Shown here: piece after piece, positions 15,355-51,201 of the stretch
Numbering within the stretch: the stretch's first letter is position 1
How the letters are laid out: every line of letters starts with the position of its first letter
Virus record (IMG/VR): IMGVR_UViG_3300036772_000367
Location: 64,001 to 128,000 of that record
Reading direction: 5' to 3' (one strand)
DNA length: 64,000 nt
From: a virus
The notes under the pieces: model-generated
Seen by the model: only the letters and a program-made list of their open reading frames with translations
What the model was told of the DNA's origin: nothing
The model's database searches: none
Position numbers and translations under genes: made by a program

Positions 15355-16911
15355 ATGGCACGGTTGGCGAGGTCGTTCCCCGGCTTCATCGTGCTACGGG
15401 GCCCGATCGCGACGACGCCGTCTTGGACCACGTGGCAGGGTGCCGCCGCGTTTGCCCCTGCCCTGACCTTGACAACAGCCGGCACCTTGATCTTGGCGTC
15501 ATCGGCCGCCACCCTGTCGGTCACGGCTGGGTTGTCCGCTGATGGCGGGGCAATCAGTCAGGCTGTTGTCACCTTGACGCCGACGGCCAGTTTGTCCAGC
15601 GCGGCCATCGACGTTGTTCCCGGAGCGGTCTCTCTGTCCGGCACAGCGGGGTTGAATGCCGCCGGCAGCTATATTGCCCAGGGCAGCGTCACGATGTCGG
15701 CCACGGCGAGCCTGGGTACCGTTGCGGTCCAGACTGGCTTCGGTCAGGCATCGTTGGCACCGGTTGCGTCCCTCGTGGTGGGTACACAGACGGTGTGGCA
15801 GGCCAGCGCCACGTTGGCTCCCGTTTCTGTTCTGGTCGCCGGAGCGGCCCAGACGAGCTTCCCTACGGTAGATCTGACTCCCTCGGCCGGGATGACGGTG
15901 GCGGCGACACGGATCGTGTTGCCGGGAGTCGCGCTGGCACCCCTGGCTGCTCTGACCACCGCGACACCGATGGCGATCTATCAGGGCGCTGTGTCCTTCA
16001 GCCCTGCCATGTCGTTGACCCTGGCATCCGGATCGAACTTCACCGGCAATGTCATTATGTCCGGGACCGGCGCGCTCACTATCGTTGGTCCGAAGGCGAT
16101 CTATCAGGCTATTATCGCGCTGGTTCCGATGGCGACCTTCACGGTGGCCAGTCTGATCCTGCCCTCTGGCGTGCTCCTGGCTCCCGTCATATCTCTGACG
16201 GCGGCGGCCGACATCCAGCTCAACGTCGGCCAGGTCCAGCCCTACTACATCAGGCAACGCCAGGACTGGGCTATCCAACAGGAACGTCAGCGTCACGCTG
16301 AGGCCATCTACTGGATCGGCGAGATGGTGTGCCTTATTTTGATGTGGCACGAGATTGATTTTCAGAAAGGTCTCGTGCAGCGCTGCCATACTTGTTACAA
16401 CACCACGGACACTATCACCAATCGCATCACTGCGGTATACAACCAACCGACGCGTAATGAATGCCCTGATTGTTTCGGTACAACCTTCGAAGGTGGCTAC
16501 CGAGCCCGCATTGTGCGACCTGCGATCCTGACCGATGTGGACGAGACCGAACGCCAGGACCGCAAGGGTTCCATGCATCCGAGTTCTCTGAACGTAGAGA
16601 CCGTCTGGGACTTCCGGTCTCGGGCGGGAGACTATCTACTGCGCGCGGACGGATCACGCTGGCGGCTCTCCGATCCCCAGCGCACCACGTTGCGCACCGG
16701 CTTCTACCATCCGGCGCAGTCCACTAGCTCCATCACGTACGGCAATATCCGCGCGCAGTACGAGGAAGAGACCACGGTGGCCTACCTCTTGCCACCCACC
16801 GATGTTTCCACTCTGAGCACATTGTTGCAGCAACAGGTGTTCTTCCCGCCGAACTTTTCCAGCTTCGAGATCATCCGGGCACCTCTCATTCCGACTGCCC
16901 TGCAAGACTAG
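15355..16911 (+). CDS. Ala/Thr/Val repeat region fused to a head-closure-like domain
   Basis: About 290 aa of approximately 24-aa repeats, then RCHTC...CPDCFGTTFEGG...GDYLLRADGSRWR. Confidence 0.7.
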   Translation: MARLARSFPGFIVLRGPIATTPSWTTWQGAAAFAPALTLTTAGTLILASSAATLSVTAGLSADGGAISQAVVTLTPTASLSSAAIDVVPGAVSLSGTAGLNAAGSYIAQGSVTMSATASLGTVAVQTGFGQASLAPVASLVVGTQTVWQASATLAPVSVLVAGAAQTSFPTVDLTPSAGMTVAATRIVLPGVALAPLAALTTATPMAIYQGAVSFSPAMSLTLASGSNFTGNVIMSGTGALTIVGPKAIYQAIIALVPMATFTVASLILPSGVLLAPVISLTAAADIQLNVGQVQPYYIRQRQDWAIQQERQRHAEAIYWIGEMVCLILMWHEIDFQKGLVQRCHTCYNTTDTITNRITAVYNQPTRNECPDCFGTTFEGGYRARIVRPAILTDVDETERQDRKGSMHPSSLNVETVWDFRSRAGDYLLRADGSRWRLSDPQRTTLRTGFYHPAQSTSSITYGNIRAQYEEETTVAYLLPPTDVSTLSTLLQQQVFFPPNFSSFEIIRAPLIPTALQD

Positions 16912-16919
16912 GAGGGGCG

Positions 16920-17648
16920 ATGCCGCAACTTCTCGCCCCGCAGATGCGTTTCGCCGCCGGGGCTCCGGACCGGCTGGTGATGTTGGCCGACGTCAGCCGG
17001 GAGGAGTCCTACTACCTGGCGACCGAAGCGGTCTACATCGCCCGGCAGACGATGCCCCGCGTCACGGGTGTCACCGCGTCCCGACTGGCCACCATCGTGG
17101 CCGAGGGTTACTTCGGCATCTACTTCCCGGACGCCACTACCTGGTTCCTGGAGGCGGGCACGCGGGCCTTCACCATGAGGTCGCTAGCCGGCAAGACCAT
17201 CCCGATGTGGGTGTCCGATACAGATGGTCAGCTCCGGCGGGACAACCCGAAGATCCGTATCCACACCACGGAGGATGGCCGTCTCCAGGTTCTGATCTTC
17301 CGTCGTGCCGCGCGCCTGGGTCAGCGCAAGGTCGTTCGACGGAAGGATCCGGTCACCGGTCAGCTGACCCTCCGCACGACGGTGGCGTCCTACCCTGGAG
17401 CGCCAGGTCGGATTAACCGTCGTCAGCCTGCCGCTCCGTGGAATGCGTCTGGGACGCAGGGTGGTCAGATCGCCGGAGGGAATGTCGGTGTTCGCTGGCG
17501 GCATCCTGGCATCCAAGCAATGCAGTTTCTCAACGGTGCGCTGGCGCGGACGGCTTTCGAGGCGGGGTTGCCGATCACCACGGTCTACGCGGTGGATGGC
17601 GCCAGTTGGCAGTCCTTCTTGAGCTTCCGCCTACGAGGAGTGCAGTAA
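16920..17648 (+). CDS. Neck / tail completion-type protein
   Basis: GGAGG RBS; FLEAGTRAFTMRSLAGKTIPMW...RWRHPG. Confidence 0.65.
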   Translation: MPQLLAPQMRFAAGAPDRLVMLADVSREESYYLATEAVYIARQTMPRVTGVTASRLATIVAEGYFGIYFPDATTWFLEAGTRAFTMRSLAGKTIPMWVSDTDGQLRRDNPKIRIHTTEDGRLQVLIFRRAARLGQRKVVRRKDPVTGQLTLRTTVASYPGAPGRINRRQPAAPWNASGTQGGQIAGGNVGVRWRHPGIQAMQFLNGALARTAFEAGLPITTVYAVDGASWQSFLSFRLRGVQ

Positions 17649-17650
17649 TC

Positions 17651-18265
17651 ATGTACCTAACACCTCTGAAGACCGCTGTGGTGGAAGCACTCCGTGACAC
17701 CTTTAATGGCAGTTATCCGAACTCCGACTTTCAGAACATCAACATCAGTGTGGAATATCCCGTACTGAAGTCGCAGTATCCCAATCTCTGGGTGACGTAC
17801 GAAGATACCGCTGAGTTGAGCATTGCCAGTATTGGACACCTGGAAGTCAGCTTCAATACCCAGACTAGAACTTATACTCAGGTGAACCGGTGGCGCTTCC
17901 AGGGGAGCATCACCATTACTATTGCGGCTTTGTCCTCTCTGGAACGCGATCGGCTCTATGACGAAGTCGTGCGTACCTTCGCCTTCGGTGGACAGAATGA
18001 TTCTTTGAATGTCTTTCGACAGAAGATCGAACAGAACGACTTTGTCGGTATGAACTTCAATTTCGACGATCTTCAGCCCACCGGAGACACCGCCGCGATG
18101 GGAACACCGTGGCAGACCGATGAAATGATTTACGAGAAGTCACTCACTATCGACTTGATCGGTGAGTTTGTGGGAGACCCACGTACCCAACAGTTGGTGG
18201 CTCTGTCGAAGTTCGACATCATCGGGACGCCTGAGGCACCAGATGGTATGCAGTTGGCCGGTTAA
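17651..18265 (+). CDS. Tail terminator-like protein
   Basis: ISVEYP...AALSSLERDRLYD...GTPW; precedes the sheath gene. Confidence 0.65.
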   Translation: MYLTPLKTAVVEALRDTFNGSYPNSDFQNINISVEYPVLKSQYPNLWVTYEDTAELSIASIGHLEVSFNTQTRTYTQVNRWRFQGSITITIAALSSLERDRLYDEVVRTFAFGGQNDSLNVFRQKIEQNDFVGMNFNFDDLQPTGDTAAMGTPWQTDEMIYEKSLTIDLIGEFVGDPRTQQLVALSKFDIIGTPEAPDGMQLAG

Positions 18266-43485: not shown

Positions 43486-44640
43486 TTACCTCCCGATCGA
43501 CAGCGCACCGGTCTGTGCACACCGCGCATGACCTGTGGTGGGAGAGATCGTCTCGCGTACCCACGACACGATGTCCCGGTTGGCGGTAGCCGCACCCTCC
43601 TCGGTGGTGAGGTCGTGGCCCGAGCGCGGCACTACGCCTGCCGTGAAGCAGGCTGCCAGGTAGTTCGGCTTCTCCGCCGTGTACAAAGCCGCACCGCTGG
43701 AGCAGTCATCTAGGTTCGTCTCGTTCGGTGCCGGTGCCTGGGAGTTGTCACAGTAGTGCGCGTCGTGCTGCCCGTCCAAGAGCAACACTGGCACCCGGAT
43801 GGTGGCCGTCAACGCGTTCAGTGTGGCCGGGCGGGATGTGATCTCACCCAACGTCAGGGTGTCCTCGGTAGTCCAATCGAACTGCACCATGCCGGGCGAG
43901 GCGAAGCCGGGCGTGTAGACAGTCAGCAGCCTGCCGGCGGCCGTGGTGTTGGTCAGGTAGCCGGGATCCAGTGGACTGAACCGCCGGGGCCACACTGTCG
44001 CGGCGGCTGAGAAGGCCGTGTGCGTGGCGGCCGTGGTCGCGGCACTCACCTTGCTACCCGAGCCGGTGACGACGAGCGCAGCGTAGTCCTGGGGGTAGGT
44101 CGCGGCCTGATTCACCAGTTGTGCCGAACCGAAGCTGTGTCCCACTCCGACCACGCTGGTGTACCGGACCTTCAGCTGGGCGACCACCTGATGCAGTGTC
44201 CATCCCTGCTGGGTGAAGGTGTTCAAGCCGGAGAGCGGGTGGCTGGAGATGCCGTAGCCGAGCCGGTCGATCGCGGTGACCGCGTAGCCGGCAGCCAGCG
44301 CGGACCAGACGGTGCTGCGGACGGCAGGATCGTCTGGCCAGGACCAGTAGCTGCTGTTGTAGGTCCCGCCGTGCAGGAGGAGCAGGTCGGTCCGTGGTGG
44401 TAGTCGAAGGGTGGGAATGCATTGGAATCCACGCAAATCAGCATGTGTGTTGTCTGTCAAAGTGACCGGAAAAGTCACCTCATGACAAATGCCGATCCAG
44501 AACGGCGGAAGGGCGAACATCGGCTCGCGCGCCATGGAGGATTGCTGTGTCGACGTATCGGCCGAAGCGGCACTGGACAAAAACAGCGAACTGACTACAA
44601 GAGCCATTATTACAGTACACACTTTTTGAAGTAAGCGCAT
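43486..44640 (-). CDS. Secreted alpha/beta hydrolase
   Basis: Signal peptide; LLHGGTY, AIDRLGYG, GHSFG nucleophile elbow, GHDL. Confidence 0.85.
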   Translation of the reverse strand: MRLLQKVCTVIMALVVSSLFLSSAASADTSTQQSSMAREPMFALPPFWIGICHEVTFPVTLTDNTHADLRGFQCIPTLRLPPRTDLLLLHGGTYNSSYWSWPDDPAVRSTVWSALAAGYAVTAIDRLGYGISSHPLSGLNTFTQQGWTLHQVVAQLKVRYTSVVGVGHSFGSAQLVNQAATYPQDYAALVVTGSGSKVSAATTAATHTAFSAAATVWPRRFSPLDPGYLTNTTAAGRLLTVYTPGFASPGMVQFDWTTEDTLTLGEITSRPATLNALTATIRVPVLLLDGQHDAHYCDNSQAPAPNETNLDDCSSGAALYTAEKPNYLAACFTAGVVPRSGHDLTTEEGAATANRDIVSWVRETISPTTGHARCAQTGALSIGR

Positions 44641-45173
44641 TATTGTGGACCTCCTAGGATTGGGTATAACGCCAGCGGCGTCACGTAACCGGCCCAACGG
44701 CCGTCGTTGAACACGTTTTTCACGGTCTTGGACGCCTCAACCAGTCCTCTGGTGATCCCCTCGTCCACGAGTTCGCTACAGATCATGTGGCCGGTGTTGG
44801 CGATGAACTCCCGCAGGCCCGGCGGGTTGATGCCGAACCTATGCAATGCGATCGCGCCATAGTCCAGCGCCGAGTAGCCGACGCCCTCCAGCGCGCGGCC
44901 GTGCTTGGCGATACTGTCCCGGACGGCCGAGGTCAGGATCTCGTCCGACCAGTGGCTCCAGACGATGTTGGTGCCGTCGTACGTAGACACGGGCACGATC
45001 GTGGCGCCGCCCGGCTCTGCCTGAACCACTTCGTCATCGCCCACGCACAGAACGGCGTGCTGGTAGTCCCGCCAGCCGTTCTTATTGATGCCCTGGCCGA
45101 ACCAGATAGCCCGGCCGGGGAAGCCCTTGATCGCGACCAGGCCGAAGTCGCCCGCCTGTGGTTTCGCGATCAT
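44640..45173 (-). CDS. Permuted NlpC/P60 (YiiX-like) protein
   Basis: QAGDFGL...YQHA...GVGYS...MICSELVD...VTP, with His before Cys. Confidence 0.8.
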   Translation of the reverse strand: MIAKPQAGDFGLVAIKGFPGRAIWFGQGINKNGWRDYQHAVLCVGDDEVVQAEPGGATIVPVSTYDGTNIVWSHWSDEILTSAVRDSIAKHGRALEGVGYSALDYGAIALHRFGINPPGLREFIANTGHMICSELVDEGITRGLVEASKTVKNVFNDGRWAGYVTPLALYPILGGPQ

Positions 45174-45601
45174 GCCGGCCGCACGATGTTGCGGAAGTCG
45201 GTCCGCCGCGCCTCATCGGTCGTCAGATCGTGCACGATATAGGGATCCTCGCCATGGCCGTGGTTCGGTGCATAGGGCTTCACTCCGTCGTCCGTGAAGA
45301 ACTCCATGCACTCATGCTTCTCGACTTCGAGTAGACGTTCGAACAGCCAGCGCTGCCATGAGGCCCTGTTGTAGGCGGCGGCCGGCACGGGGAACAAATG
45401 CCGCACGCGGATCTCTTCGTGCGGTGGGTAGCTATTCGGGCCTACCACGAGCACCGTCAACGTCAGACCGGAACAACCTTGTCCCCGGTCCTCGTCGGAT
45501 AGCCACAGTTGCCAGCCGGGCCGGTACGCGCATTGTTCCACCAACTCGACTAAGGTGTATGGATATGGCCCCACTTGATCATTTCGTTCGCTCGTTGTCA
45601 C
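45170..45601 (-). CDS. Hypothetical protein
   Basis: GGAGG RBS before GTG 45601; YRPGW...VEKHECMEFF...PYAPNHG. Confidence 0.7.
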   Translation of the reverse strand: MTTSERNDQVGPYPYTLVELVEQCAYRPGWQLWLSDEDRGQGCSGLTLTVLVVGPNSYPPHEEIRVRHLFPVPAAAYNRASWQRWLFERLLEVEKHECMEFFTDDGVKPYAPNHGHGEDPYIVHDLTTDEARRTDFRNIVRPA

Positions 45602-45624
45602 GCTGCCTCCATCGTCGCTATTAA

Positions 45625-45807
45625 TCACCGCATATCCTCCGGCTTCATCTCTACTTCGTACATGGGTCCGTCCCAGCCGGTCGTGTTGTGAAGCCACGCC
45701 GCGAAGGCCGCTGGTGCCTCTTCGGGCTGGAGGCCGTGCTCATCCATGTAGTGATCGAAGTCGGCGAAATCACCTTCGTGACATCCCTGATCACAATAGC
45801 TACTCAC
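45625..45807 (-). CDS. Small hypothetical protein
   Basis: GGAGGAGG RBS. Confidence 0.6.
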   Translation of the reverse strand: MSSYCDQGCHEGDFADFDHYMDEHGLQPEEAPAAFAAWLHNTTGWDGPMYEVEMKPEDMR

Positions 45808-45831: not shown

Positions 45832-45862
45832 GACCCCCGGAGCATATCCGACTCCGGGGGTC
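45832..45862 (-). terminator. Hairpin downstream of the tRNA-like RNA
   Basis: gacccccggag...ctccgggggtc. Confidence 0.55.
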
Positions 45863-45910
45863 TATCTACACGTAATAACCTGCACGGTTAATTGTAGTGC
45901 TGCGCATCAG

Positions 45911-46175
45911 TGCGAGAAATCCAGCAAGCATTTAAGCATCTACATGAGCTTCAGCGATGCCGTGTAATTCCTTTATACTATCGAGCCGTGCGGGGGACCA
46001 TCCAAAACCAGCGGGCGTAGATGGTCCCCCTGTATCCCACCCGGACCCCTCCCAGTGGGGCCTGGCGGCCCTCCCCCGAACTGGGAGACTCCGAGGAGGG
46101 CCAGAGGCTCGAAGGGGAATTGAACCCCCATCTCGGCAATTCAGTTGTGTAGGTGCGGTCGATCTGGATTTCGCA
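45911..46175 (-). ncRNA. Circularly permuted tRNA-like domain 2
   Basis: 3' half UGCCG-AGAU-GGGGGUUCAAUUCCCCU-UCGAGCC (46138-46106) precedes 5' half GGCUCGA-UA-GUAUAAAGGAAUUAC-A-CGGCA (45987-45958); outer stem UGCGAAAUCCAG/CUGGAUUUCUCGCA. Confidence 0.8.
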
Positions 46176-46190
46176 GCGGGTTTCAGCTTG

Positions 46191-46377
46191 GGGCAAGAAC
46201 TTGAGTCTGATGAGAAACGGTGCCTCTGCCAATTGGGCTACCGGAGCGTTGGGGAGAAGAGAACGCGTGCACGTTCTCTTCTCCGATCCCTGACTAGAGG
46301 GTAGAGCTCCGGGAGGGATTCGAACCCTCACTGTCCCGTTGTTCTCTGAGCCTCAGCTTTACCTTGAGCTTATGCCC
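46191..46377 (-). ncRNA. Circularly permuted tRNA-like domain 1
   Basis: 3' half AACGG-GACAGU-GAGGGUUCGAAUCCCUC-CCGGAGC (46340-46306) precedes 5' half GCUCCGG-UA-GCCCAAUUGGCAGAGGC-A-CCGUU (46247-46216); outer stem GGGCA/UGCCC. Confidence 0.85.
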
Positions 46378-46409
46378 ACCCGACCTCAAGGAGGTCGGGA
46401 GTCTGTGTG

Positions 46410-47180
46410 TTACCGGAGGTCGGTCAACGGGTCGAACAGGTAGCCGAAGATCCTGCGGCCGAGGGTACGCTCCTGCTCCACGACGAGAGTATTGCCCTCG
46501 GAGCGAGCGGCTTTGACCGCGCGACGCAGGGTGTCGATGCGCTGGATCAACTCCACCTTCACCGAAGCGCGGATGGCGCCGGACGTCTTCACCGTCGCCC
46601 AGTAGCCGACGATCACGTCCTCGTAGAACATCTCGACCTGCGCCGGGTGCTTGTCGGTGGCCGGAGCCTTCTCGTGGTTGCGCGGGACCTTCTTGGTGCG
46701 GGTGGTTTCCGTGGGCACCGTCGCGAAGGCCACGGCGTCGTTGTTGTAGGACCACGTCTCGGCCGGGTCCAAGGTGGGCACCAGGCTGACCACCTTGCGC
46801 AGGTCGGTGAGCTGCTTCTCCAAGAAGATCAGGTAGGTCACCGGCACGTCGACCAGAATCGCGTCCGGCTGGCCGTCCAGCTTGACCGTGGCGACGGCAC
46901 TGGTGTTGGCCTTCACCGAGGTGAACTCCAGGTTCAACAGGTCCGCCAGGCTCTCCTGGAGGCCGTCGAGCAGCTCCGGTACGCGAAGCTGGACCTGGGT
47001 CTGCTCGGCCGGCAGCTTGTCGCCCTCGTCGTCCTTGGGCTTGTAGGTGCGCTGGATGCCGGCCATACGGCTGGTCTGAGTGCTGTTGAAGGTGTGCAGG
47101 ACGCCTTCCAGCGACTTCTTGGCGCGGTTCTTGGCGTCGGGCAGTACGGCGAGGATCTGGCTGAGGCGAGTGGTCGCCAC
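46410..47180 (-). CDS. Conserved hypothetical protein (recalled as DUF7873-like; needs verification)
   Basis: RLSQILAV...RTYKPKDDEGDKLPAE...VPVTYLIFLEKQL...PTLDPAETW...TKKVPRNHEKAPATDKHPAQV; GGAGG RBS; strong codon bias. Confidence 0.85.
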   Translation of the reverse strand: MATTRLSQILAVLPDAKNRAKKSLEGVLHTFNSTQTSRMAGIQRTYKPKDDEGDKLPAEQTQVQLRVPELLDGLQESLADLLNLEFTSVKANTSAVATVKLDGQPDAILVDVPVTYLIFLEKQLTDLRKVVSLVPTLDPAETWSYNNDAVAFATVPTETTRTKKVPRNHEKAPATDKHPAQVEMFYEDVIVGYWATVKTSGAIRASVKVELIQRIDTLRRAVKAARSEGNTLVVEQERTLGRRIFGYLFDPLTDLR

Positions 47181-47262
47181 GTAGTGCCTCCGGGGTCCTG
47201 TGAGCTGAGCTTGAGGTAGTGCCGCTTCGCGTTCAGTGTCGTCCAGCGGCGGGTACGGACGG

Positions 47263-47292
47263 AAGTTAACAGGATCCCCACGTCTTCGTCAA
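47263..47292 (-). promoter_or_regulatory. Sigma70-type promoter for the 256-aa gene / RNA operon
   Basis: TTGACG-18-TAACTT. Confidence 0.6.
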
Positions 47293-49714: not shown

Positions 49715-49875
49715 CATATCACTATGTAGATATAGGGGTGTGTCAGGAATTACTTCCTGGCGGTGGCCATCTGACGATGGTCTTCTCGTTTCACCGAGGA
49801 CTGCTCACCATTGCTGGTGAGACTGACATTCTCTCCACGAGCGTTTAATGTCTCCCCTGCTCCAGAGGCGACAGA
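49715..49875 (-). ncRNA. Putative TnpB omegaRNA overlapping the tnpB 3' end
   Basis: GUCGCCUCUGGAGCAGGGGAGAC...AAACGCUCGUGGAG...GUGAAACGAG...CAGGAAGUAAUUCCUG...ACACCCC hairpin series; boundaries approximate. Confidence 0.55.
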
Positions 49876-51201
49876 TCGATCAGGGGCCCATTCCACCAGA
49901 TTTCTGGCGGCATTCACGTCCCGATTGAGGACGAGACCGCAATGATCACAAACATATACTCTGTCCTGGAGGTTCAGCGTGGCTTTAACTGAACCGCATC
50001 GAGAACATACTTTACTGGAAGGAAAAAATCTGTCTACCACGGTCAGGGCAGATCCGTACCACTGGGTCTTGTAGTCCAGTTGGCGGCGGAACTCACCGAA
50101 CGCGGCATCCAGAATCGAGCGCGAAAGACCTGATTTCGCTCGAACATTCTTGCCGGGCTTCTCGACGGTGCCTCGGGCTGAGGCTGTCATGCCGAGTACG
50201 TTCAGATCTTCGATGGCCACGCGCTCGTACTGCGTAGCCAAGTTCTTGGTCAGCCCGTGCAGGAACGATGCTCGTTGCTCGGCGACCTGGTGGTGAATGC
50301 GGCCGACCCGAACTGCCGCACGATGACGTCGTGCAGAGCCCCGTTCGGTCCGACTCAGTCGCCGCTGTGCTGTGCGCAGTCGTGCGGCAGCAGCGCGGAC
50401 GAACCGAGGATTGTTGATCAGGGTGCCGTCCGAGTAGGCGGCCAGGTGCAACAAGCCCACATCGACACCGACGGCACCACGGACACGCTGGGCACGCGTG
50501 GTGGGCCGGAGAACGTGCTCTGCCGGCTCCTTCACCAACACGGCCGCGTACCACTGCGAAGCGCCCCGAGATAGCGCCACGGACTGAATCCGGGCACCCC
50601 TACTCAGGGCACGCACCAGACGCTTCGCCGAGGAGTGCAAGCGAAGCGACCCGAGTCGGGGAACGAGTAGGTGCCGGTATCCATCCGGGCGGATGGTAGG
50701 CGACTTGACATCGTGGTAGATCCGGAATGAGTCGCGCGAGCGACCCTTCTTCTTGAACTTCGGGTAGCCCATCTTCCGGCCTTTGCGTTTGCCGGTGAGG
50801 GAATTCATCCAGTTCTTGAAGGCAGCATCGGCATCGGAGAAGGCCGAGGAGAAGGTGTAGGAGGACACGGTGCGCCACCAGGGGCTGGCACCGTCCTCGC
50901 CGGTCTTCTCGTCGCCTCGGATCTTGATCCACGCACTCTTCATCGTGAAGGCCGTCGGGATCTTGATCGACACCTGCTTGCGGGCGACCTGCTCGTCTAG
51001 GCCCTCGTCCACCAGCGCCTGGACCTGGTCACGCCAGGTCTGATGCACGCCGATCTTCACCGCCAGGGCGTGATTGAATGCCCATCGAGCGGTGCCGGCG
51101 TGCTGTGCCAACGCGGACAGCTGGTTCTGGTTGGGGTCCAGGTTGAAGCGGTACGCGCGGAGGATCGTCGCCGACTCATCGGACTCGGTCATCTCACGCA
51201 C
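49750..51201 (-). CDS. tnpB: RNA-guided endonuclease TnpB (ATG 51192 is better spaced from the RBS)
   Basis: AYRFNLDP HTH, YPKFKKK, RuvC GVDVG / IEDL / RDVNAARN, Zn ribbon CSRC..CDHC; all three catalytic acids present. Confidence 0.95.
   Translation of the reverse strand: MREMTESDESATILRAYRFNLDPNQNQLSALAQHAGTARWAFNHALAVKIGVHQTWRDQVQALVDEGLDEQVARKQVSIKIPTAFTMKSAWIKIRGDEKTGEDGASPWWRTVSSYTFSSAFSDADAAFKNWMNSLTGKRKGRKMGYPKFKKKGRSRDSFRIYHDVKSPTIRPDGYRHLLVPRLGSLRLHSSAKRLVRALSRGARIQSVALSRGASQWYAAVLVKEPAEHVLRPTTRAQRVRGAVGVDVGLLHLAAYSDGTLINNPRFVRAAAARLRTAQRRLSRTERGSARRHRAAVRVGRIHHQVAEQRASFLHGLTKNLATQYERVAIEDLNVLGMTASARGTVEKPGKNVRAKSGLSRSILDAAFGEFRRQLDYKTQWYGSALTVVDRFFPSSKVCSRCGSVKATLNLQDRVYVCDHCGLVLNRDVNAARNLVEWAPDRSVASGAGETLNARGENVSLTSNGEQSSVKREDHRQMATARK

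Follow-up and report, generated by a model that had tools for sequence, protein, structure and literature searches.

The window analysed here, a stretch of 64,000 nt (positions 64,001 to 128,000 of IMG/VR record IMGVR_UViG_3300036772_000367), comes from a phage genome of 155 kb. Directly 3' of a gene for a DUF7873 protein and on the same (minus) strand lies a putative non-coding RNA of about 570 nt, spanning window positions ~46399-45832. The features of the locus are listed below in the direction of transcription, each with the evidence for it in brackets.

46410..47180, minus strand: DUF7873 gene, 256 aa, GTG start, stop codon included (Pfam PF25283)
46379..46399, minus strand: 9-bp hairpin that opens the RNA region, 10 nt past the DUF7873 stop codon (sequence and MFE fold)
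46191..46376, minus strand: domain 1, with head 1 inside the closing helix 46376-46372 / 46195-46191 (RNAalifold, window and four relatives)
46306..46340, minus strand: head 1, 3' half: anticodon-stem 3' strand, variable loop, T arm and acceptor 3' strand (sequence)
46329-46313, minus strand: head 1 T arm, loop UUCGAAU (sequence)
46312-46306, minus strand: head 1 acceptor 3' strand (sequence)
46248..46305, minus strand: head 1 linker of 58 nt, which closes the acceptor stem and contains a perfect 14-bp hairpin (sequence and fold)
46216..46247, minus strand: head 1, 5' half: acceptor 5' strand, U8-A9, tRNA-Leu-type D arm and anticodon-stem 5' strand (sequence)
46247-46241, minus strand: head 1 acceptor 5' strand, then UA and the D arm with GG (sequence)
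45899..46177, minus strand: domain 2, the YrlA-like part, with head 2 on a long outer stem (model R1 match; outer stem covaries)
46157..46163, minus strand: internal-loop motif AUCGACC, outer stem 5' strand (conserved A4 columns 231-237; pattern check)
46106..46138, minus strand: head 2, 3' half: anticodon-stem 3' strand, variable loop, T arm and acceptor 3' strand (sequence and RNAalifold)
46129-46113, minus strand: head 2 T arm, loop UUCAAUU (sequence)
46112-46106, minus strand: head 2 acceptor 3' strand (sequence)
45988..46105, minus strand: head 2 linker of 118 nt, which closes the acceptor stem and forms several hairpins (sequence)
45958..45987, minus strand: head 2, 5' half: acceptor 5' strand, U8-A9, 4-bp D arm with 7-nt loop and anticodon-stem 5' strand (sequence; D stem covaries)
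45987-45981, minus strand: head 2 acceptor 5' strand, then UA and the D arm (sequence)
45929..45936, minus strand: internal-loop motif CUUAAAUG, outer stem 3' strand (conserved A4 columns 382-390; pattern check)
45866..45897, minus strand: small hairpin in the interval between domain 2 and the terminal hairpin (RNAalifold, A6 columns 592-639)
45832..45862, minus strand: terminal hairpin, 11 bp, G+C-rich, with conserved loop (sequence and fold; A6 columns 646-677)

A preliminary description had placed this system at 45911-47292. Both tRNA cores lie inside that span, which is slightly short, as the RNA continues to the hairpin at 45862-45832. A 581-nt stretch covering the region folds with a z of -8.0 relative to 100 shuffles. 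Four close relatives retain the opening hairpin, with compensatory changes (A6 columns 50-76), and the terminal hairpin is conserved in 5/5 clade members. The terminal hairpin is likely the 3' end of the RNA; it is terminator-like with no U tract, and a terminator scan gave no call there. Between these ends, the closing helix of domain 1 displays little covariation, is seen in the close clade only and was not recovered in an alignment of 20 sequences. Within the stem of domain 2, AUCGAC faces UUAAAYG in a conserved internal loop. Most relatives have a shorter RNA of ~360-400 nt. A coding reading of the region was rejected: the ORFs of 115 and 117 aa (45957-46331) fall mostly within clade-specific linkers, and relatives have no gene call in the same frame. 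The omega-RNA of the TnpB gene at 49750-51201 was likewise considered and rejected, because 3.3 kb and other ORFs separate the two.

The two tRNA cores with halves in reversed order are found where the preliminary description had put them, and each checked detail of its account is correct, including the perfect 7-bp acceptor stems (pair 3:70 is U-A in head 1 and C-G in head 2), the linkers of 58 and 118 nt, U8-A9, the D-loop GG, the T loops and the 5-bp 'anticodon' stems devoid of a loop. These stems continue into longer helices, both in the window and in every aligned relative. Joining the halves gives no 7-nt anticodon loop, the criterion for a functional permuted or split tRNA, in the window or in any aligned relative. 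Red and green algae and some archaea have permuted tRNA genes that likewise place the 3' half upstream of the 5' half, but these yield real tRNAs with anticodon loops via circular intermediates. ARAGORN finds no tRNA or tmRNA gene in the window. The domain had been described as doubled. Two heads are indeed present, as domains of a single RNA, but they are not equivalent: head 1 resembles tRNA-Leu and head 2 resembles YrlA.

Long, hairpin-rich linkers had also been described. They are present at 58 and 118 nt; judged by the relatives, however, both are clade-specific insertions, with loops of 6-10 nt in most other members. The 58-nt linker is missing in four close relatives, three of which have 6-7-nt loops and one of which (L015) has lost head 1 to degeneration (A6 columns 163-212), and thus is an insertion of this phage. 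The head 2 linker measures 107-130 nt in L013, L015 and L017, 41 nt in L014 and 7-38 nt in more distant phages. Across all relatives linkers extend from 4 nt (L027) to 267 nt. Acceptor loops share a newly recognised signature, starting N73-C74-Y75 and often NCCA: C74 occurs in 179/196 heads, position 75 is C or U, and CCA is present in 51/196. In some loops, such as that of 4 nt in L027, NCCA and a leader would not fit. There is no conserved U just before G1, and RNase P does not account for the conserved C at -3.

Conservation of the RNA was assessed with covariance model R1, a domain-2 model of 169 positions whose seed held no member of the window phage's clade. R1 matches the window along its whole length (67.8 bits, E 2.4e-17, 45902-46179, model positions 1-169 of 169), and the head 1 core gives 41.5 bits (46202-46329). 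The alignment of homologous loci proposed in the preliminary description bore out a conserved structure. Paired cells amount to 95.8% versus 66.9% in shuffles (0/500 shuffles as high), and 41 of 47 RNAalifold pairs carry compensatory changes among 20 RNAs; the T and acceptor stems belonged to the selection pattern for this test, whereas the D stem and outer stem, which also covary, did not. Using related viral loci gathered with a 12-row DUF7873 alignment, the strict head pattern was found 3' of DUF7873 at 69/80 IMG/VR loci versus 2/80 upstream and 2/80 in the reverse complement. For bacterial loci the counts were 80/80 downstream and 0/80 upstream.

Chen et al. 2014 (PMC4201824) warned of an artefact in which the T arm of one tRNA and the D arm of the next mimic a YrlA-like unit, and decayed tandem tRNA genes or chance could in principle give such a locus. 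R1 does give weak matches of at most 42 bits in the genome's own tRNA array and at most 27 bits in Gordonia phage Phendrix. Full-length matches, however, range from 52 to 133 bits, the locus is 78 kb from the array (40 tRNAs), and in all relatives the two acceptor strands of a head form a helix across its loop, compensatory changes included. Covariation and the upstream and reverse-complement controls refute this explanation, which is given a negligible likelihood.

The neighbouring protein, described beforehand as unrelated to Ro60, belongs to DUF7873 (PF25283; 279.4 bits against a cut-off of 27, E 3.8e-83, profile positions 2-242 of 244), and its pairing with the RNA is conserved. A full-length R1 match follows the DUF7873 gene in 75/80 IMG/VR cases; 3/80 loci have no match, the RNA is on the opposite strand in L076, and in one phage an IscB element is inserted between gene and RNA. 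Ten cultured phages, whose hosts are Actinomycetota, Pseudomonadota and Cyanobacteria, also have the RNA 3' of DUF7873. Among 101 Streptomyces-order genomes, a tally that takes in the unpublished genome G044, 63 have a DUF7873 gene and 60 of these 63 have an adjacent full-length RNA, while the R1 search found no full-length RNA in 38/38 genomes that have no DUF7873 gene. Joint loss of adjacent genes by one deletion is possible, so this co-occurrence is no proof of shared function. In three genomes of 9-12 Mb the sole full-length R1 match adjoins the DUF7873 gene, and genome G006 has two DUF7873 genes and two RNAs, the duplicated pairs staying together. Same-strand adjacency is kept in phages of three bacterial phyla and in bacterial chromosomes, while all other neighbours vary.

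The protein itself is modelled confidently by AlphaFold2 (mean pLDDT 93.8) and is predicted to form a homodimer, with an ipSAE of 0.61 versus 0.00 for the best control, contact agreement of at least 96% among runs and partner pLDDT of at least 84. That mark was reached by 20/30 proteins solved as same-chain pairs and 1/23 solved as single chains, counts that hold only roughly here because an own alignment was used for DUF7873. The protein is not basic (pI 7.9 in the window; family median 6.2). It belongs to no PHROG, PADLOC or NCBIfam family and has no PDB sequence match. Foldseek against PDB and BFVD returned nothing at E <= 0.001, and no known RNA-binding fold emerged from the structure searches (Foldseek PDB/BFVD, VIA-align, ESM Atlas). 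VIA-align ranks 3kdq, a structure of unknown function, first (Z 9.3, rmsd 6.9 A, 148 aligned residues). By shape, the ESM Atlas returned DUF7873 itself and small unnamed phage or Bacillota proteins only, and its feature search gave no usable match. An actin capping protein fold, suggested by weak Foldseek rows (E ~0.03, TM 0.12), was rejected as a fold match.

Given such a protein, the RNA could be a stable or 3'-UTR-derived transcript merely co-transcribed with DUF7873. The heads would then serve as modules for processing and stability (exonuclease or RNase P stops), the RNA would act alone or with host proteins, and DUF7873 would be functionally separate. The near-neutral charge and lack of a known RNA-binding fold agree with this, as do the RNA on the opposite strand and the one parted from its gene by a mobile element; moreover, the gene is often found within phage tRNA arrays, all of which are cut by tRNA-processing enzymes. 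The constancy of same-strand adjacency amid changing neighbours speaks against it, as do the missing RNA in the 38 gene-less genomes and the cohesion of the pairs in G006. The ~170 conserved non-tRNA positions with their motifs also exceed what a stability module needs. Co-transcription alone is considered an unlikely explanation.

To our knowledge, Y-RNA-type bacterial tRNA mimics have been described only together with Ro60, and no function is assigned to the part that resembles a tRNA. The topology had been likened to that of YrlA, and the module order is indeed the same. As in YrlA RNAs (RF02553), which partner Ro60/Rsr (PMC4201824), a permuted T arm, a loop-capped acceptor-like stem and a D arm follow one another, a stem closes the 5' and 3' ends, and both RNA termini lie on the anticodon side. 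Each RNA is encoded next to its presumed protein partner, YrlA frequently along with another RNA module, and both occur in phages. The DUF7873 RNA differs in its presumed partner, which is not a TROVE protein, in carrying two heads per RNA, of which head 1 is tRNA-Leu-like, and in keeping AUCGAC opposite UUAAAYG without the Ro-binding motif GNCGAAN0-1G. By pattern search, that motif is missing in the window RNA and in 7/8 relatives. A search of Rfam had been named as a check on novelty: the window has no match at gathering score, and up to E 10 only tRNA fragments and chance microRNA matches appear. RF02553 (gathering score 69 bits) does not match the window even at E up to 10; in relatives it aligns with head 2 at full length but below threshold, at 31-38 bits, or half of the Rfam cut-off, and with head 1 at 21 bits.

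The absence of Ro60 noted for the window extends to the whole 155-kb genome, where no Ro60/TROVE gene was detected (positive controls in 2/14 genomes). No TROVE gene was found in 9/10 other DUF7873 phages either, and the single TROVE-bearing one has separate YrlA-like RNAs beside its TROVE gene. Judged from the phages' own genomes, though a host may supply a Ro60, the particle is best read as a Ro60-independent, Y-RNA-like RNP. Two described systems come close to it. In M. smegmatis, YrlA/YrlB likewise combine a 7-bp acceptor stem and an actinobacterial setting with two tRNA-related RNAs from one precursor beside a protein gene; those RNAs were immunoprecipitated with Rsr (PMC4201824). Thermus phage phiLo encodes a Ro60 with two adjacent Y-RNA-like RNAs, Yrl1 and Yrl2, and this Ro60 has been proposed to engage host RNA enzymes (PMC12135203). 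The phiLo protein, however, is a canonical Ro60 ring of HEAT repeats and a vWA domain (PMC12135203), and the predicted fold of DUF7873 is different.

Taken together, the data point, with a probability of roughly 0.55, to a widespread DUF7873-RNA pair that works as a Ro60-independent Y-RNA-like RNP with tRNA-shaped heads. A DUF7873 homodimer would bind the conserved non-tRNA parts of the RNA, and the particle, a relative in plan of Ro60/Y-RNA particles, would show its two heads to enzymes that recognise the acceptor, T arm or elbow of tRNAs. Candidates are RNase P, the CCA-adding enzyme and modification enzymes, with leucyl-tRNA synthetase for head 1. [quoted passage not shown] Such processing would explain how inserts of 58 and 118 nt are tolerated.

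Another newly recognised feature is that, by comparison with tRNAs, head 1 is a circularly permuted, anticodon-less look-alike of tRNA-Leu. Its best tRNA match is Leu in 11/12 loci. Among the genome's 40 tRNAs the D-arm pattern of head 1 matches tRNA-Leu genes only, three of the five strictly and the remaining two but for one or two bases. The variable loop and T arm match the phage's own tRNA-Leu genes as well, the ACAGU variable loop being common to two of them. N73 is A in 24/30 and 50/54 Leu-type heads (U73 in the window's head 1), and NCCA is encoded in 23/84. Head 2, by comparison, has no consistent best tRNA isotype among the loci compared.

These same traits raise the possibility that the heads are true acceptors, their loops cleaved, their CCA ends matured and head 1 leucylated, so that the particle is an aminoacyl carrier outside normal decoding, whether as a ribosome factor resembling tmRNA/SmpB or as a dedicated donor of Leu to a transferase. 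Head 1 shares A73 with tRNA-Leu isoacceptors, along with the D arm, the variable loop and the T arm; bacterial LeuRS does not read the anticodon, and 23/84 Leu-type heads encode NCCA. The maturation of M. smegmatis YrlA (PMC4201824) can be counted in its favour too. So can the likeness to two-piece tmRNA, in which the gene order is permuted with T arm and acceptor 3' strand first, an excised spacer of variable length, cf. the 4 to 267 nt here, separates the acceptor strands, a long helix replaces the anticodon arm, and a small dedicated protein, SmpB, is the partner, as is presumed for DUF7873. Weak partial Rfam matches to permuted tmRNA models occur among relatives. In the window, by contrast, neither a tag reading frame nor a G3:U70 pair is present, and neither ARAGORN nor Rfam calls a tmRNA; two-piece tmRNA does not have two heads, and Phendrix has a normal tmRNA besides its DUF7873 RNA. 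Most loops lack CCA, some are only 4-6 nt, head 1 of the window carries the 58-nt insert together with U73, and we know of no charging data for any YrlA-type RNA. True acceptor function is held to be improbable. Equally doubtful is its fuller form, in which a DUF7873 dimer would use or deliver Leu-RNA charged by LeuRS on the anticodon-less carrier once RNase P and 3' maturation have opened the acceptor loops, as a second tmRNA/SmpB-like or transferase-type system in Streptomyces and large phages.

The preliminary description had regarded the RNP as a phage device, for example a decoy for tRNA-targeting defence toxins, with modulation of the ribosome or RelA and scaffolding as other candidate roles. 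That the pair is phage-specific does not hold, as it is chromosomal in ~60% of the sampled Streptomyces-order genomes, in housekeeping-like surroundings and not within a prophage. A decoy for anticodon nucleases is unlikely because there is no anticodon loop. Heads that absorb host toxins directed at the acceptor end or elbow of tRNAs (nucleotidyltransferase or pyrophosphokinase toxins, for instance) would fit the many large lytic phages that carry the pair beside tRNA sets, and the heads do expose an acceptor/T-arm helix, often with CCA. The chromosomal setting, the missing PADLOC match, the exclusion of anticodon nucleases and the fact that a decoy needs no conserved protein partner weigh against counter-defence, which is rated a slim prospect. 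Under the preferred reading of a Y-RNA-like RNP, the phage copy probably came from, or is common to, actinobacterial hosts and would act on the tRNA and translation apparatus in infection.

The Y-RNA design would thus occur here with a different, wholly uncharacterised presumed protein partner and doubled in one molecule, one head of which imitates one particular tRNA, that for Leu. Most of the Streptomyces-order genomes sampled have the pair, as do phages of at least three bacterial phyla, which often carry it within their clusters of tRNA genes. Being genetically tractable, Streptomyces and its phages offer a direct route to the role of tRNA-shaped heads on non-coding RNAs, as well as to whether large phages manage host tRNA enzymes with such heads. 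No paper naming DUF7873 or describing the gene-RNA pair was found in the Y RNA, tRNA mimic, phage and Streptomyces literature; the pair would give DUF7873 a first functional context and add an RNA family missing from Rfam. It would also flag 'gaps' of ~400-600 nt in many deposited phage genomes, which are unannotated or filled with doubtful small ORFs.

The RNA lies directly 3' of the DUF7873 gene, and the reading favoured here, at a probability of roughly 0.55, is that protein and RNA form a Y-RNA-like particle that is independent of Ro60. The analysis establishes the RNA itself, its structure, its link to the gene, the lack of Ro60 and the likeness to tRNA-Leu; binding, processing and targets are inferred. 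About 570 nt without a credible gene begin 10 nt past the DUF7873 stop codon and end in a G+C-rich hairpin (45862-45832); this stretch folds at -261 kcal/mol (z = -8.0 versus shuffles). RNAalifold alignments divide the RNA into two domains, with two permuted, anticodon-less tRNA-like cores (head 1 and head 2).

47180-46410, minus strand: DUF7873 gene, 256 aa, full-length match to Pfam DUF7873 (E 3.8e-83)
46376-46191, minus strand: domain 1 of the RNA, a short closing helix that carries head 1
46177-45899, minus strand: domain 2, a long interrupted stem with head 2 at its tip
46163-46157 (5' strand, AUCGAC) opposite 45936-45929 (UUAAAYG), minus strand: conserved internal loop of the domain-2 stem

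A conserved, partly repetitive sequence links domain 1 to domain 2, and the RNA region opens with a 9-bp hairpin and closes with a conserved hairpin. The preliminary description of two tRNA cores in permuted order is borne out by the sequence: in both, the T arm and acceptor 3' strand come first, followed by a linker, the acceptor 5' strand, U8-A9 and the D arm. The 7-bp acceptor stems are perfect in both heads, the linkers measure 58 and 118 nt, and the 5-bp 'anticodon' stems, checked by sequence and fold, are loopless and extend into longer helices. The 58-nt acceptor-loop hairpin of head 1 occurs in this phage only (the loops are 6-7 nt in three close relatives); the long insert of head 2 (41-130 nt) is common to the window's clade and measures 7-38 nt in other phages. 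In L015, a close metagenomic relative, head 1 is degenerate or lost and the flanking helix and domain 2 are kept, so that L015:3275-3450 is a layout exception lacking head 1. ARAGORN called no tRNA or tmRNA in the window, and an Rfam scan of the window gave no match at gathering score, with fragments only at E up to 10. The source virus record (IMG/VR; 155,226 bp, rated complete, 59% G+C) has 40 tRNA genes, clustered 78 kb from the RNA locus.

The RNA proposed from this window covaries among homologous loci. With 20 complete RNAs, RNAalifold gave 47 pairs, which span both T arms, acceptor stems, D stems and the long stem enclosing head 2; compensatory changes occur in 41 of the 47. In a domain-2 alignment of 31 sequences 95.8% of cells are paired, versus 66.9% in shuffles (reached in 0/500) and ~42% with partners slid, the T and acceptor stem pairing being partly by construction because both stems belonged to the selection pattern; outside that pattern, pairing is 96% in the D stem and 87% in the outer stem. 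A covariance model of domain 2 (R1, 169 positions), built excluding every member of the window phage's clade, matches the window over its whole length at 45902-46179 (67.8 bits, E 2.4e-17), four close metagenomic relatives at 71-76 bits and the head-1 core of the window RNA at 41.5 bits. Across the phage's own genome the RNA beside DUF7873 is the sole locus; other matches, at most 42 bits, fall in the tRNA array and are a known artefact of tandem tRNAs, a source of such model matches for which a caveat is given in PMC4201824. Acceptor sequences vary between phages and pairing is kept in all; that the heads are decayed tandem tRNAs has a negligible probability.

Under a strict counting pattern (T arm, perfect 7-bp acceptor closure, U8 and D-loop GG), heads were found downstream of DUF7873 at 69 of 80 IMG/VR loci (33 with at least two heads), upstream at 2 and on the reverse complement at 2. 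The corresponding counts for 80 bacterial loci, mostly Streptomyces chromosomes, are 80 downstream (60 with two heads) and none upstream. Full-length R1 matches scoring 50 bits or more follow 75 of the 80 IMG/VR DUF7873 genes (21 of these 80 loci had served as seeds of R1), and weaker ones follow two more. By tblastn, DUF7873 is present in 75 phage records, with hosts including Gordonia, Arthrobacter, Rhodococcus, Rhizobium, Klebsiella, Serratia, Ralstonia, Vibrio and cyanobacteria. In all ten phage records inspected, the gene is followed by ~180-1160 nt without an annotated gene, and eight of these gaps contain permuted heads (one or two) or a match to R1 at full length. The RNA of Gordonia phage Ronaldo overlaps small annotated ORFs, and that of Microcoleus phage My-WqHQDG lies past an inserted IscB element, at L005:5189-5435 (R1 46.8 bits). 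Between gene and RNA of the latter, L005:3441-4952 holds a HEARO RNA (129 bits) together with an ORF of 425 aa, presumably IscB; a mobile element has apparently landed within the RNA gene or next to it. At L076:3431-3593 the RNA is ~1.2 kb downstream of DUF7873 on the opposite strand. The DUF7873 gene sits within a phage tRNA gene array in Phendrix, Talia1610, NiceHouse and RHph_TM39. An unannotated stretch of the array of Gordonia phage Phendrix (MN096369.1, L001:569-1097) contains a full-length tmRNA (RF00023, 89 bits).

Linkage extends to chromosomes. Three actinobacterial genomes (9-12 Mb) each have a single full-length R1 match, adjoining a DUF7873 gene. A sample of 101 genomes from the order to which one Streptomyces genome belongs gave DUF7873 in 63, with a full-length RNA adjoining it in 60 of the 63 (59/62 without the unpublished genome G044); the RNA was found in none of the 38 lacking DUF7873. 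One genome has two DUF7873 genes and two RNAs, each pair adjoining. Joint loss by deletion is expected because gene and RNA are neighbours, and the stronger argument for linkage is an adjacency that outlasts the turnover of all other neighbours. That the RNA is stable and co-transcribed with DUF7873 but functionally separate from it is considered unlikely. A dedicated phage decoy for acceptor-end toxins is quite improbable, weakened because the Streptomyces loci are chromosomal and housekeeping-like and the RNA has no anticodon loop whatsoever. In Streptomyces sp. NBC_00057 the DUF7873 neighbours are a RidA-like gene, an aminotransferase and an HxlR-family gene. On an actinobacterial chromosome (P0093 contig, 2.3 Mb) DUF7873 follows immediately after a gene for a class Ib aminoacyl-tRNA synthetase of 341 aa (tRNA-synt_1b, Trp or Tyr type), with a PIN-domain gene on its downstream side.

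The proposed Ro60-independent particle shares its design with YrlA (Rfam RF02553), the permuted-tRNA Y RNA usually partnered by Ro60/Rsr, and differs in its partner, its doubled architecture and its tRNA-Leu head. Head 2 with its stem aligns to Rfam YrlA at full length in six relatives, below threshold (31-38 bits, cut-off 69), and at E 1.3e-6 in local search; head 1 scores 21 bits. The lack of Ro60, first noted for the window, holds for the whole 155,226-bp genome, which has no TROVE/Ro60 gene (control genomes were positive). A pattern search found no Ro-binding motif GNCGAAN0-1G in the window RNA or in 7/8 relatives, and TROVE was not found in nine of ten other DUF7873 phages. The exception, Rhizobium phage RHph_TM39, has a TROVE gene ~5 kb past DUF7873 and its RNA (L006:3396-3578), with YrlA-like RNAs at L012:390-504 and 569-643, upstream of the TROVE/Ro60 gene. 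Only one of these two aligns to the whole of R1, at 27 bits versus 67 bits for the DUF7873-side RNA; the two systems thus coexist as separate units. Literature searches found no paper on DUF7873 and, for Y RNAs, tRNA mimics and phages, nothing describing the DUF7873-RNA pair. Five genomes of the Streptomyces order (G009, G047, G063, G065 and G091), with and without DUF7873, carry extra permuted tRNA-like cores elsewhere (~59 bits, R1 positions 49-116/120 only, no outer stem), and G001 has two similar matches; the extra cores of the five may be YrlA proper or another family.

The two heads are not equivalent, a point new to this analysis. When D arm, variable loop and T arm were compared with ~100 phage tRNAs, acceptor stem and anticodon arm excluded, tRNA-Leu was closest to head 1 at 11 of 12 diverse loci (among them a Streptomyces chromosome, a Klebsiella jumbo phage, phiRSL1 and a cyanophage), with a Leu/Met tie at the twelfth, and the top-five lists were almost all Leu. 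The same comparison gave no consistent isotype for head 2. Among the genome's 40 tRNAs the head-1 D-arm pattern occurs in tRNA-Leu genes only (3/5 strictly, 2/5 with 1-2 differences), and its ACAGU variable loop recurs in two of the five. These five genes, at 16402-17657 of the source genome, outside the window, are all 74-75 nt with a 5-nt variable loop; bacterial tRNA-Leu usually has a long variable arm. The short type is also found in Gordonia phage Phendrix and Rhodococcus phage NiceHouse; that of Arthrobacter phage Talia1610 is 84 nt. In bacteria, A73 is the major LeuRS identity element and LeuRS is not known to read the anticodon. N73, the base past the acceptor 3' strand, is A in 24 of 30 IMG/VR and 50 of 54 bacterial Leu-type heads, mostly U in non-Leu-type heads, and U in window head 1. 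LeuRS would be the specific candidate partner of head 1, and both heads may engage enzymes recognizing the acceptor, T arm and elbow of tRNA. Little credence is given to a Leu carrier that can be charged, whether tmRNA-like or linked to a transferase.

In sequence, the acceptor loops resemble a tRNA 3' end followed by a leader. Among 196 non-redundant heads, 179 have C at position 74 and 172 have C three positions before G1, with either C or U at position 75. The sequence encodes CCA in 33/89 viral heads and 18/107 bacterial ones. Loop length ranges from 4 to 267 nt, with medians of 8-13 nt. [quoted passage not shown] Cleavage is not an entirely neat fit, given a conserved C at -3, a -1 base that varies and loops of 4-6 nt in some heads.

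The 256-aa protein has no family in PHROG, PADLOC or NCBIfam searches; DUF7873 itself comprises 2119 clusters at 50% identity. An AlphaFold2 model (72 homologues; pLDDT 93.8, pTM 0.72) predicts three long helices, a four-stranded sheet and a long C-terminal helix. The model has no clear match among solved structures: Foldseek found none at E <= 0.001, the best VIA-align match is 3kdq, a Corynebacterium protein without assigned function (Z 9.3, rmsd 6.9 A, 148 residues aligned), and the remaining matches are coiled-coil fragments with Z < 8. At pI 7.9, against a family median of 6.2, the protein is close to neutral. Prediction supports a homodimer, with ipSAE 0.61 versus 0.00 for the best control, contact agreement of at least 96% between runs and partner pLDDT of at least 84; among proteins solved as one-chain pairs 20/30 reach that ipSAE, and among those solved as single chains 1/23, counts that are rough because our own alignment was used. 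Such a dimer would hold the conserved non-tRNA core of the RNA, and we infer that its two-fold form may face a two-headed RNA.

Upstream of the DUF7873 gene by 2.6 kb, on the same strand, is a TnpB/IS605 OrfB-type gene (49750-51201, minus strand; HTH_OrfB_IS605, OrfB_IS605 and Cas12f1-like TNB domains); L013, the closest relative, has a TnpB gene immediately upstream of DUF7873, but on the other strand. Downstream of the RNA, 43486-45697 (minus strand) encodes a 175-aa protein of PHROG 1540, whose function is unassigned in PHROG, a 177-aa protein weakly matching an enoyl-CoA hydratase-like PHROG, and an alpha/beta hydrolase (esterase/lipase-like, 403 aa).
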